In this document: piece after piece, positions 27,640 to 30,290 of the stretch | How the letters are laid out: the number at the start of each line of letters is the position of its first letter | Position numbering within the stretch: the stretch's first letter is position 1 | Assembly (NCBI GenBank): GCA_041689795.1 | Contig: JBDNFN010000396.1 | Coordinates: forward strand, 16,122-80,121 | Direction of reading: 5' to 3' | Source: Fuerstiella sp. | GTDB lineage: Bacteria; Planctomycetota; Planctomycetia; Planctomycetales; Planctomycetaceae | DNA: 64,000 bases | Made by a program: the position numbers and the translations under genes | The notes under the pieces: generated by a model | Told to the model about the DNA's origin: nothing | The model's input: only the letters and a program-made list of their open reading frames with translations | The model's database searches: none

Positions 27640-28803
27640 CTATTGTATGTAGCCTCGCAGCCAGCCGCGTGAGCCCTGCGGAGGAATTGCATCGGCCATG
27701 TCGGTCCCATCTGCCAGCGTGAATGAAATTGCCAGCGGGAATGGATCCTTCGGCGCGTTGCGAGTGTAAGTTCCTTCTCCGGCGAAGGTGCCTTTTGCAA
27801 CCATTTTCATTCCAGTCACTTTGCGATCGACGATTGTGAGCTGTCCCAGCAGGTCCGCTGAATAGCTGCGACTTCCGTCCTTCGACTTCAGCTCCACATG
27901 TCCAACGATGTGTCCCTGATCAACGGCAAATCGGTGAGAAACGACTTCATCTTCGTTCCACATCGGTGGTTCGCCGCGAGTATTATCCACAAGGTGAAAT
28001 CGAGCGATCCTGATCGCAAGGCTGGCTGGAAATGTTCCGTCGATCATCGCATTAGTTTCGTTAGCACTAATCCACAGGTTGTCGCGTGAGAGCGCCGTCT
28101 GGAAGACTTTCTCAAAGTGCGAGTCTGGTTCTTCGTAACCACTTAGTACTTTCGCCTGGACGCGGACGACCAGACCTGCAGTTGGTGATTGCGGGTTAAA
28201 TTGAGGATCTGTTTCGGGGCGAGAAGTTTCGCTGTTCTGAGGCTGCTTTGTTGTATTGCCTGGTTTTTGCAGCTGCATGGCCTCTTTGAGCATGCGAAGA
28301 ACGTGCTGGGGATCTCGGTTATTGGTGTAACCTAGAAATGTTCCGTCAGCCGCAGCCATGTATAGTCCTTGAGTTGTCCCGGACTCAAAATCGTTTCTAG
28401 GGCCCTGGCTGGCGATCTTCCTATAGAAGTCGCCCTCGGAGTCTTTCTGGCGTCGCTGGTACCACTGGTCGATGGCGACAGGAATGGTTCTTGTTTTGAT
28501 AAAGTTGACGATGACGGGATCTGCGAATGTCGACTCACGGTCGATAACTCCATTGTTTCATGTGCAGCCCAGGGGATGGCCATCCATTGCCCAGATGAAC
28601 AAAGGTTTTTTTTCAGATACGGCCAGCTTCTGAGCACTCAGAACAGATGTCTTCCACGGAACAGTTCGCCATAGTGCAGAATTGTCCGGCTGCAGTTCCG
28701 CGTGAAGCGACAGGAATTCTGATTCGGTCAATTCGGCAGCAGGCGCCGAAGAGAGGTGCCATGCAGTCAGCGAAACGATGAGCAGCATTTTGATGCGGGA
28801 CAT
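27640..28803 (-). CDS. Secreted thioredoxin-fold protein with one in-frame TGA at the redox motif (candidate selenoprotein, G-C-T-U-N-N-G); 387 codons if read through
   Basis: ORFs 28558-28803 and 27640-28359 are in the same frame (28803-28359=444). The 66 codons between the TGA (28560-28558) and the next Met are open. Joined sequence: signal peptide...WKTSVLSAQKLAVSEKKPLFIWAMDGHPLGCT-TGA-NNGVIDRESTFADPVIVNFIKTRTIPVAIDQWY. This is a thioredoxin-like beta1/active-site/alpha1/beta2 layout with the TGA at the active-site turn. Confidence 0.55.
28530..28544 (-). promoter_or_regulatory. Candidate (weak) bacterial SECIS-like hairpin downstream of the in-frame TGA
   Basis: The mRNA reads UGA-AACAAUGGAGUUA-UCGAC-CGUGA-GUCGA. 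This is a 5-bp stem starting 13 nt after UGA, with a 5-nt apical loop containing GU. The stem is short and the extension is only possible with mismatches. Confidence 0.3.
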
Positions 28804-28845
28804 TTGATGAATCCTTCACTGATTGTCAAAATTATAGAAATTAGC

Positions 28846-29889
28846 CTACGCCAGGTGTGCTGCGATTAGTTCTGTGGTCGGGTTATGAATCAGTCCGCGT
28901 TCGGTGATAATGGCGGCGATTAGATTTGCCGGAGTCACGTCGAAAGCCGGGTTGTAGACAGCCACGTTGTCGGGAACCGTTTGCTTTCCAAACCCGTGAG
29001 CGATTTCATCACGCGATCTTTGTTCAATCGGAATTTTATCACCGTCGCTTAGGCTTAAGTCAAACGTGCTAGACGGAGCTGCCACATAGAACGGAATATT
29101 GTGGGCCTTTGCCAGCACGGCAACACCGTAGGTGCCAATCTTGTTGGCGGCGTCTCCGTTAGCTGCAATGCGATCGGCTCCTGTGACGACGGCAGAAATT
29201 CGGCCTTCCTTCATTACCTGAGCCGCCATGTTGTCGCAGATAACCGTGACGGGTATGCCTCGTTGGTGCAGTTCCCACGCAGTAAGGCGAGCTCCCTGAA
29301 GCAATGGCCGAGTTTCGTCCGCATAAACGTGGATCGATTTTCCTTCGTTAACGGCAGCGAAAAATACAGATAGCGCAGTGCCTTCACCAGCCGTTGCCAG
29401 TGCTCCAGCATTGCAATGCGTCAGTACGCCCGAGCCGGATTCGATCAGCTGACTTCCGTGGCGACCAATTGCCAGACACATTTCACGATCTTCGTGATTG
29501 ATCGCGTTCGCCTCGTCTAAGAGTCGGTCGTGCATTTGTGATGAAGTCAGGTCCTTGTTTTGCAGGGCCACCGCCGTCATGCGGTCCATCGCCCAAAACA
29601 GGTTAACAGCGGTCGGACGACTGCTGCCGAGATAGCTGACGACTTCGGCCAGCTTGTCATTAAATAGCGATCGCTCAGCATCTCGAAGATCGCGAGTGCC
29701 AATCACAACGCCGTATGCCGCCGCGACTCCGATCGCTGGAGCCCCACGAACTCGCAAAACTTTGATGGATTCCCAGACGCCCTCGGCCGTCCAGCATTCA
29801 ATTTCTTTGAACTCTGTTGGCAGCAGAGTCTGGTCGATCATGAACAGCGAGCCTGTGGCGTCGCCCTTCCAATGAAGAGTTTGGTACAT
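28846..29889 (-). CDS. mtnA: S-methyl-5-thioribose-1-phosphate isomerase
   Basis: From Met at 29889 the translation is MYQTLHWKGD...LRVRGAPAIGVAAAYG...RPTAVNLFWA...THCNAGALAT...ADETRPLLQGARLTAWEL...GADRIAANGDAANKIGTY, matching the MtnA / eIF-2B-related family. Confidence 0.9.
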   Translation of the reverse strand: MYQTLHWKGDATGSLFMIDQTLLPTEFKEIECWTAEGVWESIKVLRVRGAPAIGVAAAYGVVIGTRDLRDAERSLFNDKLAEVVSYLGSSRPTAVNLFWAMDRMTAVALQNKDLTSSQMHDRLLDEANAINHEDREMCLAIGRHGSQLIESGSGVLTHCNAGALATAGEGTALSVFFAAVNEGKSIHVYADETRPLLQGARLTAWELHQRGIPVTVICDNMAAQVMKEGRISAVVTGADRIAANGDAANKIGTYGVAVLAKAHNIPFYVAAPSSTFDLSLSDGDKIPIEQRSRDEIAHGFGKQTVPDNVAVYNPAFDVTPANLIAAIITERGLIHNPTTELIAAHLA

Positions 29890-30203
29890 GGTTTTCGTTG
29901 TGTTTGAGTTGCTGATCTGTCGAAGTGTGCTGCCGGCTATCGTGGTCAGCAAACGAAATGTGTTTTCGGCTTTTACCGTTCGCCAAAATTAAATCACGCA
30001 GGTCGCAGCCTGCACTTCAGCGAATGCATTAGCGATCAGGCTAGCACGCCGCACCGCAGTAAACAACAAACACCAACCGATCCTGTCTTAATCAAACCGA
30101 CGGAATTGAGTCCAGACGTTTCAGGTGTCATACTGCCGCCCGGCAAAAGCCATGCGAGGTCTCACCATTTCCGATTGGTAAAGACTTGTGCGGTTTGACG
30201 GTC

Positions 30204-30290
30204 GGACCATTTCGGCCGGACCATTTCGGCCGGACCATTTCCGCCGGACCATTTCCGCCGGACCATTTCCGCCAGACCATTTCCGCCAGA
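30204..30290. repeat. 14-bp tandem repeat, 6 complete copies plus a partial one (GGACCATTTC[C/G]GCC)
   Basis: Head-to-tail units lie at 30204, 30218, 30232, 30246, 30260 and 30274. The first two carry CGGCC, the next three CCGCC, and the last starts with A. The array is intergenic, between mtnA (minus) and the Dabb gene (plus). Confidence 0.95.

Follow-up and report, generated by a model that had tools for sequence, protein, structure and literature searches.

A reading frame interrupted by one UGA

The window analyzed here is a 64,000-nt stretch of DNA from Fuerstiella sp. On its minus strand, translation of the frame 28803..27640 gives 81 codons, a single in-frame TGA (28560..28558) and 305 further codons in the same frame without a stop. 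The sequence around the TGA reads ...WAMDGHPLGCT-TGA-NNGVIDRESTFADP. The first-pass annotation had described the upstream part as an 81-codon signal-peptide ORF whose frame stays open beyond the TGA, with the first possible Met 66 codons downstream and a Cys two residues ahead of the TGA (C-x-U); all three observations are borne out by the translation. Gene callers annotate two products at the locus, P0271 of 81 aa and P0001 of 239 aa, the latter beginning at that ATG 66 codons 3' of the TGA.

The segment before the TGA begins with the signal-peptide-like MSRIKMLLIVSLTAWHLSSAPAA and ends ...KKPLFIWAMDGHPLGCT. By inspection, its N-terminus combines a basic n-region, a hydrophobic core and an A-x-A-like site, and orthologues have equivalent N-termini. 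In the AF2 model discussed below, residues equivalent to the signal peptide have pLDDT < 60. The features of the locus, all on the minus strand, are as follows.

28812..28817, minus: Shine-Dalgarno-like GAAGGA, 8 nt 5' of the ATG (by inspection)
27640..28803, minus: predicted selenoprotein gene, complete in one translated frame of 387 codons, of which one is UGA (Sec)
28803..28801, 28560..28558 and 27642..27640, minus: start ATG, in-frame TGA (codon 82) and stop TAG
28735..28803, minus: start codon and predicted Sec-type signal peptide, cleavage site approximate
28564..28566, minus: Cys80 codon TGC, two residues before the Sec position; candidate resolving or partner thiol
28558..28560, minus: UGA codon 82, predicted to be read as Sec (TGA in 88/88 loci, Cys in distant homologues, aligned with the first Cys of CxxC in a DUF255 structure)
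28525..28550, minus: bacterial SECIS-type stem-loop inside the coding sequence (MFE fold, synonymous-site conservation, compensatory changes)
28267..28671, minus: predicted thioredoxin-fold domain (DsbH/Thioredoxin_7-like), residues ~45-179 (AF2, Foldseek, profile match)
28180..28266, minus: low-complexity, poorly conserved linker KPGNTTKQPQNSETSRPETDPQFNPQSPT, residues ~180-208 (pLDDT 63-64 in the P0001 model; variable in alignments)
27643..28179, minus: C-terminal domain of ~180 aa with long antiparallel beta-hairpins (AF2 pLDDT > 90 in the models of P0035 and P0001)

Conservation of the UGA codon

The same TGA occurs, with an identical product, in four independent assemblies (ENA ERZ27247430, ERZ27315998 and ERZ27315419; JGI 3300005913), and because these agree it is not an assembly error. 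It is also present at the aligned codon in 88 of 88 homologous loci carrying the motif, including those of 80 species-representative reference genomes from Planctomycetota, Phycisphaerae and Verrucomicrobiota. Such conservation is far beyond chance. The flanks of the TGA are near-invariant across loci (KPIFIWAMDGHPLGC[T/V]-U-NNGV), and the position of Cys80 is Cys in all 88.

A pattern-limited scan found the family in 249 of 185,579 species-representative genomes, and its metagenomic protein clusters number more than 1,000. The 80 species-representative genomes include Verrucomicrobiales MAGs as well as Stieleria marina K23_9 (L008, NZ_CP036526.1) and Phycisphaeraceae D3-23 (L006, CP114179.1). 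Protein databases contain the family as products of ~296 aa that begin directly after the UGA. Its N-terminal half matches 414 clusters, and each of the 120 listed is a fragment of 69-127 aa restricted to the region upstream of the UGA. Both halves are labeled 'hypothetical protein' in PGAP-annotated genomes.

No Cys forms were seen among close orthologues, either in the 88 loci or in the clusters listed. Distant homologues (~30-40% identity) do show C-T-C at the Sec site, the kind of homologue that the first-pass annotation had proposed to look for. GCTC aligns there in P0131, P0132, P0155, P0165 and P0240, and T/S-T-C in P0234, P0243 and P0254. For P0132 and P0155, we confirmed genuine TGT and TGC codons in the DNA.

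Elsewhere in the window TGA behaves as a stop. It ends 8 of the 31 long ORFs and is internal to none of them (up to 1437 codons), so the window uses the standard genetic code. Further genes interrupted by a TGA were sought throughout the window, and only non-coding-looking frames came up.

A SECIS-type hairpin after the UGA

The first-pass annotation had also pointed to a small hairpin with a GU-containing loop 13 nt past the UGA, and had proposed a SECIS fold check. The hairpin is there, with an upper stem UCGAC/GUCGA and a loop CGUGA. Counting the U of UGA as 1, the upper stem spans positions 17-21/27-31 (28544-28540/28534-28530), starting 13 nt past the UGA, and the lower stem positions 11-15/32-36, with one bulged base at 16. 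The apical loop consists of C22 G23 U24 G25 A26 (28539-28535). In the window copy, U15 replaces the usual G15, which breaks the 15:32 pair and leaves positions 15-16 unpaired.

The published bSECIS model specifies a loop of 3-9 nt, an upper stem of at least 4 bp, a G within the first two loop positions, a location 16-37 nt from the UGA and an MFE ≤ -7.5 kcal/mol (PMC13188914, Fig. 2 legend). The geometry of all copies agrees with this model, the loop (CGUGM) having 5 nt, the upper stem 5 bp and the spacer between UGA and loop 18 nt; G23-U24 is invariant, which puts a G at the second loop position. An MFE of -7.5 kcal/mol or lower was calculated for 74 of 84 sequences, and the window copy, at -7.3 kcal/mol, is marginal and slightly weaker than the family norm. 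Against shuffled sequences it scores z = -0.12, which is no signal by itself. The support for the hairpin comes from conservation and not from thermodynamics.

That conservation is pronounced. Across 84 distinct sequences, synonymous sites from +15 to +30 are nearly invariant, with frozen third positions in Arg CGT (100%), Asp GAC (99%) and Ser TCG (92%), whereas four-fold sites just beyond this interval vary freely. Double compensatory changes occur at pairs 18:30, 21:27 and 15:32; those at 18:30 appear in 5 distinct sequences, with no one-sided changes. None of 500 shuffles reached the observed covariation score, the compensatory events behind it being few and probably clade-linked. An equivalent hairpin is absent from both Cys-form genes examined (P0132 and P0155). 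Rfam returned no SECIS-type match for the hairpin, a null that is uninformative because Rfam has no general bacterial SECIS model.

The element resembles the E. coli fdhF SECIS and the bSECISearch consensus in several ways. In each, a hairpin follows right after the UGA inside the ORF, with a one-base bulge under a short upper stem and a small apical loop that has G and then U at its second and third positions; the 18-nt spacing lies within the 16-37 range. In the fdhF element the critical loop bases G23/U24 and the bulged U17 sit at nearly the same positions relative to the UGA as here. The loop of fdhF is GGUC, whereas the present family has the 5-nt CGUGM and a bulged C16 or A16.

Thioredoxin fold and active site

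The structural assignment rests on an AF2 model of the orthologue P0035, which is 51% identical to the window protein and carries Trp at the Sec position. The model has a pLDDT of 90.5 and the order beta1, loop, alpha1, beta2, alpha2, beta3, beta4, alpha3. In the window protein the active-site loop is GHPLG-C80-T81-U82, with helix alpha1 from N83; likewise, alpha1 of the model begins one residue after the Sec position. The best Foldseek match is 7tkv_A (Thioredox_DsbH; prob 1.00, E = 0.022, rmsd 3.6 Å over 146 columns), followed by weaker matches to AGR2 and PG_2175. Model and match together agree with the earlier suggestion of a thioredoxin-like unit with the TGA at its redox site. A profile match to 3ira_A pairs U with the first Cys in the S-T-C-H-W-C of that structure.

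Links to thioredoxin families at the sequence level all fall below curated cutoffs (E = 0.002-0.17). The Cys homologues score 11.6-18.4 bits against PF03190 and PF13899, compared with a gathering cutoff of 27, and the window protein itself has no match to either at E ≤ 1. On the predicted structure, we assign the protein to the thioredoxin-fold superfamily, in the DsbH/Thioredoxin_7 branch, with the putative redox residue at the N-terminus of alpha1.

The likeness to PF03190 (Thioredox_DsbH/DUF255), PF13899 and the structures 7tkv_A and 3ira_A is one of fold, with Sec aligned to their first CxxC Cys. The families also share a local pattern, W..A...A....KP-beta1, active site, ..F.D.EV...L...FV.V.VD. 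In contrast to PF03190 and PF13899, the present protein has five extra residues, GHPLG, ahead of its active site, Sec in place of Cys, Gly in place of the second Cys, an extra Cys at -2 and a different C-terminal domain. The resulting motif is C-T-U-N-N-G (C-x-U-x-x-G), not CxxC, UxxC or CxxU. By alignment, Sec takes the place of the nucleophilic Cys at the N-terminal end of the ancestral CxxC; Gly occupies the position of the second Cys, and the candidate partner Cys stands at -2.

The C-terminal domain

The C-terminal domain contains the conserved motifs RIARFHLVDNTRGEPPMW and PLAISFTLADGxDxADxxPPQGxRGW. Foldseek searches of the PDB with the whole model and with the C-terminal fragment gave no match to this domain at E ≤ 0.001 or prob > 0.4, and Pfam and NCBIfam have no match to it. 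Its weak structural neighbors (prob ≤ 0.38) are START, lipocalin/avidin, YceI and haemophore folds. In the Ser/Thr kinases P0142, P0165, P0207 and P0243 and in the FecR-type anti-sigma factor P0255, the extracytoplasmic portion consists of this two-domain module. In these kinase and anti-sigma versions the Cys pair is sometimes lost.

Comparison with known selenoproteins

Searches of Pfam and NCBIfam with the joined protein gave nothing at E ≤ 1. At E ≤ 10 only NF041383 (18.7 bits, cutoff 275) and NF041382 (14 bits, cutoff 350) appear. NF041382 and NF041383 are the VPGUxxT family thioredoxin-like (seleno)proteins of types 1 and 2 ('hypothetical protein OS_HP5'), the sole selenoprotein-specific models with any signal. 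With the orthologue, NF041383 gives E = 0.0011 and 18.7 bits over residues 55-124, the thioredoxin-fold region around Sec. The profile lengths of 287 and 349 are near that of the present protein, and Sec again sits in a thioredoxin-like active site. However, the motif is VPG-U-xx-T rather than GCT-U-NNG, and only the N-terminal ~65 profile positions align, the C-terminal domain not at all. With scores far under the curated cutoffs and a different motif, we rejected membership in VPGUxxT.

A more general likeness is to the bacterial thioredoxin-fold selenoproteins, among which Sec.1 shows C-x-U spacing in thioredoxin-like proteins. The domain architecture of such proteins (NF041199, PF13192) is unlike that of the present one. 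Neither model matches at E ≤ 1, and the NCBIfam model does not do so at E ≤ 10.

Mining of bacterial selenoproteomes has gone on for some two decades. The motif strings of the family are absent from the searchable literature and the GOS supplements, and a literature search on selenoproteins of Planctomycetota returned nothing relevant. One 'hypothetical' planctomycete selenoprotein candidate, with a Cys match in Rhodopirellula sallentina, is listed in Table S9 of PMC4807772, and this candidate could be the present family. The May 2026 catalogue comprises 119 prokaryotic selenoprotein families (PMC13188914, Table 1). The family matches none of their models above cutoff and is uncatalogued, and with no Pfam or NCBIfam model at cutoff and a C-x-U-x-x-G motif it deserves the description 'non-standard family' that it had been given at first sight.

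Gene neighborhood and selenocysteine machinery

Over 82 loci, the gene neighborhood shows no specific conserved partner. The commonest neighbors, each at no more than 14 of the 82, look on inspection of their sequences like expanded planctomycete families (sulfatase, DUF1501, PSCyt/PSD1-type).

Several relatives carry genes for selenocysteine insertion next to the family gene. In L066 and L084 a tRNA-Sec, identified by ARAGORN and Rfam RF01852 (67-69 bits), lies 255-315 nt downstream of it; in L059 one identified in the same way lies 2.4 kb upstream. In L081, L079 and L044 the adjoining gene is selD, its product scoring 247 bits against TIGR00476 (cutoff 125) in L081, where this was tested. 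In L081 and L079 selD is followed by selA (TIGR00474, E = 5e-51), which runs off the end of the locus. We saw selB at none of the loci, nor in the window and its flanks. The window, with 10 kb of the contig upstream and 8 kb downstream (~82 kb), contains none of selA, selB, selC and selD; because the sequence read holds no sel genes, the Sec capacity of the window's own genome is inferred from orthology only.

Discussion

Given the conserved TGA, the Cys homologues, the SECIS-type hairpin, the fold and the sel genes beside relatives' copies, we conclude that the locus is a real selenoprotein gene decoded via SECIS, with a probability of about 0.9. This upholds the selenoprotein reading of the TGA put forward in the first-pass annotation. 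UGA codon 82 would be recoded as selenocysteine within one intact gene for an exported protein. By analogy with characterized bacterial systems, the hairpin would recruit SelB-GTP-Sec-tRNA(Sec) to the ribosome. After removal of the signal peptide, the protein is predicted from the P0035 model to adopt a DsbH/Thioredoxin_7-like fold with Sec capping the N-terminus of alpha1. The selenolate might then attack an extracytoplasmic substrate, such as a disulfide, a sulfenate, a peroxide, or another chalcogen or metal species, with resolution through a strained selenenylsulfide between Cys80 and Sec82. Specificity for a substrate or ligand may come from the C-terminal domain. For selenolate attack and Cys80-Sec82 resolution as the specific redox mechanism, we consider the odds roughly even.

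The protein may instead be a real selenoprotein that is not catalytic, its C-x-U site and beta-rich domain binding or sensing a metal, a chalcogen or a redox signal, perhaps in selenium handling. The occurrence of the module outside the cytoplasm in the kinases and the anti-sigma factor named above, at times without the Cys pair, points in this direction, as do the ligand-binding folds among the weak neighbors of the C-terminal domain and the absence of the canonical resolving Cys at +3. However, those structural similarities are all non-significant (prob ≤ 0.38). In keeping with such a role, the family gene adjoins selC or selD (with selA in two cases) in six genomes, but selenoprotein genes often lie near sel genes without having a role in selenium metabolism. 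Sec is also strictly conserved, none of the close orthologues seen having a Cys form, which would sooner be expected of a catalytic residue. A non-catalytic selenoprotein seems rather unlikely to us.

A very improbable reading is that the TGA is a true stop, ending a short secreted 81-aa peptide ahead of a separately initiated protein, or marking a split or decaying pseudogene. Gene callers annotate two products everywhere, and about 85% of orthologues have a GTG four codons past the TGA that is a potential start. The window copy, however, has GTT there (AAC AAT GGA GTT ATC follows the UGA, with no start codon), and its next ATG would bisect a confidently predicted domain. In the model a single thioredoxin fold spans both halves, the TGA falling between beta1 and alpha1, and distant homologues run through uninterrupted with Cys at the site. 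A pseudogene would not hold stop, flanks and frame in 88 of 88 loci across phyla.

We give even less credence to decoding of the TGA as a standard amino acid, Trp or Gly, whether through an alternative genetic code (4 or 25) or through near-cognate read-through that needs no SECIS. The JGI pipeline did put W at this codon in P0035, and the protein sequences of the distant homologues P0171 and P0128 have G at the aligned position, in P0171 from either a real Gly codon or code-25 translation. Yet the termination of long ORFs by TGA in the window speaks against a reassigned code. The uninterrupted relatives have Cys, the hallmark partner of Sec, the SECIS-type hairpin is conserved only alongside TGA, and tRNA-Sec or selD adjoins the gene in the six genomes above. 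Finally, an error of sequencing or assembly has a negligible probability, and so has a nonsense mutation that arose recently in this contig only. Such an explanation is the default suspicion for an isolated in-frame stop; we found no evidence for it, and it is contradicted by the identical TGA in four independent assemblies of the same organism and in every orthologue from other species.

Recognition of the selenoprotein gene would correct the annotation of hundreds of Planctomycetota, Phycisphaerae and Verrucomicrobiota genomes, in which it now stands as two hypothetical proteins. The family would add an exported selenoprotein and an unusual C-x-U-x-x-G thioredoxin active site. It would also bring a confidently predicted ~180-aa domain without a PDB relative, which recurs as a kinase and anti-sigma sensor module. 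That the close orthologues seen include no Cys form suggests that selenium outside the cytoplasm brings a strong benefit for catalysis or binding. The family is open to experiment in Stieleria marina K23_9, a strain that is in culture and has a complete genome. More speculatively, and we think it doubtful as a whole, the protein could be the first representative of a so far uncatalogued family of exported proteins, spread across the PVC superphylum, whose two-domain module serves for sensing or ligand binding and not as a housekeeping oxidoreductase. The adjacency to sel genes might then reflect sensing or acquisition of selenium, chalcogen or redox signals outside the cytoplasm.

A single gene divided by one in-frame TGA

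Re-deriving the frame on the minus strand (28803..27640) bore out what the first-pass annotation had seen: an ORF split by one in-frame TGA, with 81 codons and a signal peptide before it and 66 + 239 stop-free codons after it.

ATG 28803..28801 to TAG 27642..27640, minus strand: very probable selenoprotein gene, a single reading frame
28560..28558, minus strand: in-frame TGA (codon 82), the sole interruption; context ...KKPLFIWAMDGHPLGCT-TGA-NNGVIDRESTFADPVIV...

By inspection, GAAGGA lies 8 nt 5' of the ATG, and the N-terminus (MSRIKMLLIVSLTAWHLSSAPAA) has the appearance of a Sec signal peptide. Downstream of the TGA, 305 codons are open in frame; the first ATG, 66 codons on, is the gene-caller start of a 239-aa product (P0001), and the part 5' of the TGA is called separately as an 81-aa product (P0271). 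Among named relatives, the one closest to this N-terminal fragment is P0334, from a Fuerstiella sp. MAG (79% identity). Because the identical TGA occurs in four independent assemblies from the same organism, it is not an assembly error, and the sequencing error that the first pass had considered is very improbable. The standard code is in use: of 31 long ORFs in the window, 8 terminate in TGA, and ORFs of up to 1437 codons contain none internally.

A repeat that generates repetitive spurious ORFs on both strands lies some 250 nt past the start of an mtnA-like gene (28846-29952, minus strand).

30203-30287: tandem repeat, 14-nt unit CGGACCATTTCCGC, 6.1 copies, 97% matches, apparently intergenic

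The TGA is conserved in close relatives and replaced by Cys in distant ones

Among 5.8 billion proteins searched, 1661 relatives were found. The best 120 are nearly all ~296 aa long, with the N-terminus 'M(I/L)DR(A/E)STFADP', and their start is a GTG/TTG-type codon four codons 3' of the TGA position. The sole full-length close match, P0035, has a 'W' at the site, which its DNA identifies as a TGA rendered by code 4; the JGI pipeline had applied that code to its locus (L001:186-1406, JGI 3300004791). This Trp is an annotation artefact that hides a selenoprotein, and it could mislead surveys of alternative codes.

The same TGA arrangement is seen in the DNA of Phycisphaeraceae D3-23 and of a Planctomycetaceae MAG, both distant genomes. 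Scanning one genome per GTDB species gave 249 loci encoding a relative, of which we retained 80. Once other fetched loci are added, the aligned codon is TGA in 88 of 88, preceded by KPIFIWAMDGHPLGC[T/V] and followed by NNGV(L/I)DR(A/E)STFA, in a set biased to close orthologues because FIWAMDGH was a scan pattern. Searching with the N-terminal half returned 414 clusters; the 120 listed are all fragments of 69-127 aa confined to the pre-TGA part, and none of them is an uninterrupted close relative.

Uninterrupted homologues appeared only at about 30-42% identity when 1.84 billion cluster representatives were searched exhaustively with HMMER. The aligned site reads GCTC in P0131, P0132, P0155, P0165 and P0240 and TTC or STC in P0234, P0243 and P0254, and is lost in others; Cys codons (TGT and TGC) were confirmed in the DNA for P0132 and P0155. 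Both outcomes that the first pass had named as informative, a retained TGA and an aligned Cys, are found. The Cys form P0131 (JGI 3300048101 contig) is called without a signal peptide and has an asparagine-synthase-like gene on one side and a radical SAM + SPASM pair on the other, unlike the Sec-form context. We found no conserved gene neighbourhood for the family gene.

A SECIS-type hairpin follows the UGA

The hairpin glimpsed in the first pass is real. Numbered from the U of UGA (position 1), the family consensus reads UGA AAC AAY GGN GUG CUC GAC CGU GMG UCG ACN UUY GCC. Positions 17-21 pair with 27-31 around the loop C22 G23 U24 G25 M26; below this upper stem come a bulge at position 16, a G15:C32 pair and a weaker lower stem reaching 11:36. 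The bacterial SECIS model specifies a loop of 3-9 nt, an upper stem of at least 4 bp, a G in the first two loop positions, a location 16-37 nt from the UGA and an MFE <= -7.5 kcal/mol (PMC13188914). The family hairpin has a 5-nt loop with G then U from its second position, a 5-bp upper stem, a spacing of 18 nt and, in 74 of 84 distinct sequences, an MFE <= -7.5 kcal/mol. The window copy, which has U15, is marginal against that threshold at -7.3 kcal/mol.

Synonymous-site conservation is the strongest SECIS signal. Third-codon positions from +15 to +30 are almost frozen (Arg CGT always, Asp GAC 99%, Ser TCG 92%, Val GTG 85%), and four-fold sites just beyond the hairpin are essentially free (0.06-0.5 bit of information). 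Stem changes are two-sided: C18:G30 is replaced by U:A in five distinct sequences and never on one side only, C21:G27 by U:A once and G15:C32 by U:A twice. These compensatory events are few and probably clade-linked. The covariation score was matched by 0 of 500 shuffles, and pairing is 89% in the proposed register versus 17-45% in slid registers. No equivalent hairpin was found in two Cys-form genes read at the DNA level, one of which uses CGG for Arg, and no Rfam model matches the hairpin.

Sec machinery lies beside the gene in several relatives

The only tRNA in the window is tRNA-Pro, and no sel genes were found there or on the contig 10 kb past one end and 8 kb past the other, flanks that hold typical planctomycete genes (PSCyt/PSD1, DUF1501). 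PSCyt1/PSCyt2/PSD1 and DUF1501 gene pairs, typical of Planctomycetes, abound on the contig (2258-4816, 4771-6261 and 55788-59612 of the window; L088 and L090); together with the Fuerstiella match of the N-terminal fragment, they suggest a Planctomycetaceae genome as the source of the window. Complete selA, selB, selC and selD sets are known in some Planctomycetes (PMC4807772).

ARAGORN places a tRNA-Sec 315 nt 3' of the family gene in locus L066, 255 nt 3' in L084 and 2.4 kb 5' in L059, each scoring 67-69 bits against Rfam RF01852 (cutoff 47). At three loci the family gene adjoins SelD fused to an N-terminal pyridine-nucleotide-disulfide oxidoreductase.

L081:4326-6521, minus strand: SelD fusion (TIGR03169 + TIGR00476), Cys form 'CRGCGCK'
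L079:3696-5861, minus strand: the same fusion, same Cys form
L044:5025-7106, minus strand: the same fusion, same Cys form

The L081 fusion scores 247 bits for TIGR00476 (cutoff 125) and 367 for TIGR03169 (cutoff 310), and SelA follows it in L081 and L079 (TIGR00474, E = 5e-51; the gene runs off the locus end). In Rhodopirellula/Rubripirellula-like MAGs the fusion is convergent with the family gene. Overall, a Sec-machinery gene lies no more than about 3 kb away at 6 of ~80 loci, against a rough expectation of ~0.2 (four genes, 5-8 Mb genome), the six not being phylogenetically independent.

The tRNA-Sec of L059 (L059:234-328), from an Aureliella MAG, has a second TGA-interrupted gene beside it.

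L059:510-1085, minus strand: Prx/AhpC-like selenoprotein gene interrupted by TGA

This gene has a signal peptide and reads ...MFSRAHW-TGA-PFCMRQLGEL..., a UxxC motif (HW-U-PFC).

A thioredoxin-like domain joined to a beta-rich domain

We modelled P0035 (51% identity to the window protein, Trp at the Sec position) with AlphaFold2, obtaining pLDDT 90.5 and pTM 0.87. The model places beta1 at 75-80, the loop G-H-P-L-G-C87-T88-[U89], alpha1 from residue 90, and then beta2, alpha2, beta3, beta4 and alpha3; the N-terminal domain is thus predicted to be a thioredoxin fold. The model's best Foldseek PDB match is 7tkv_A, which has a Thioredox_DsbH domain (prob 1.00, rmsd 3.6 Å over 146 columns, E = 0.022), followed by weaker thioredoxin-like matches to AGR2 and PG_2175, and Cys homologues give sub-threshold Pfam matches to Thioredox_DsbH and Thioredoxin_7. 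The family profile aligns to the DUF255 structure 3ira_A (E = 0.17), pairing U with the first Cys of S-T-C-H-W-C; the family has Gly in place of the second Cys, and GHPLG is a five-residue insertion. This alignment and the model therefore put Sec at the nucleophile position. The only thiol nearby is the Cys at -2. The C-x-U spacing and the thioredoxin-like unit first read from the sequence both stand.

Two models predict the C-terminal ~180 residues with confidence (pLDDT > 90) as long antiparallel hairpins plus a few helices. Foldseek returned no significant PDB neighbour for them, the best matches (prob <= 0.38) being to START, avidin, YceI or haemophore-like folds. The whole two-domain module also makes up the C-terminal, presumably extracytoplasmic, part of the Ser/Thr membrane kinases P0142, P0165, P0207 and P0243 and of a FecR-type anti-sigma factor, P0255. 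C-T-C is kept in P0165, partly kept in P0243 (T-T-C) and lost in P0142, P0207 and P0255.

A very probable selenoprotein family outside the catalogue

Comparative evidence supports the selenoprotein interpretation of the first pass: one gene with a conserved UGA (88/88), Sec/Cys pairing with Cys forms, a conserved SECIS-type structure and a thioredoxin fold with Sec at the alpha1 N-cap. Both gene halves are 'hypothetical protein' in NCBI-annotated genomes. A May 2026 review gives a Pfam, NCBIfam or CDD identifier for every one of its 119 families of prokaryotic selenoproteins (PMC13188914). The window protein scores below every Pfam and NCBIfam cutoff, its sole selenoprotein-specific signal being the VPGUxxT thioredoxin-like family at 18.7 bits versus a cutoff of 275, and the family motif was not found in searchable literature or GOS supplements. 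By sequence, this is the non-standard family first suspected, a member of no catalogued one, although its mode of action would resemble that of other bacterial thioredoxin-fold selenoproteins.

In the window organism, the protein would receive Sec at the UGA through SelB and be exported via its predicted signal peptide. In a redox cycle, the selenolate would attack a substrate and be resolved as a Cys80-Sec82 selenenylsulfide, and the C-terminal domain may be the source of specificity; a sensor or ligand-binding role is a serious alternative to such a cycle. Strain makes CXC disulfides relatively oxidising, so an oxidase-/isomerase-like or peroxide-reactive role would be favoured.
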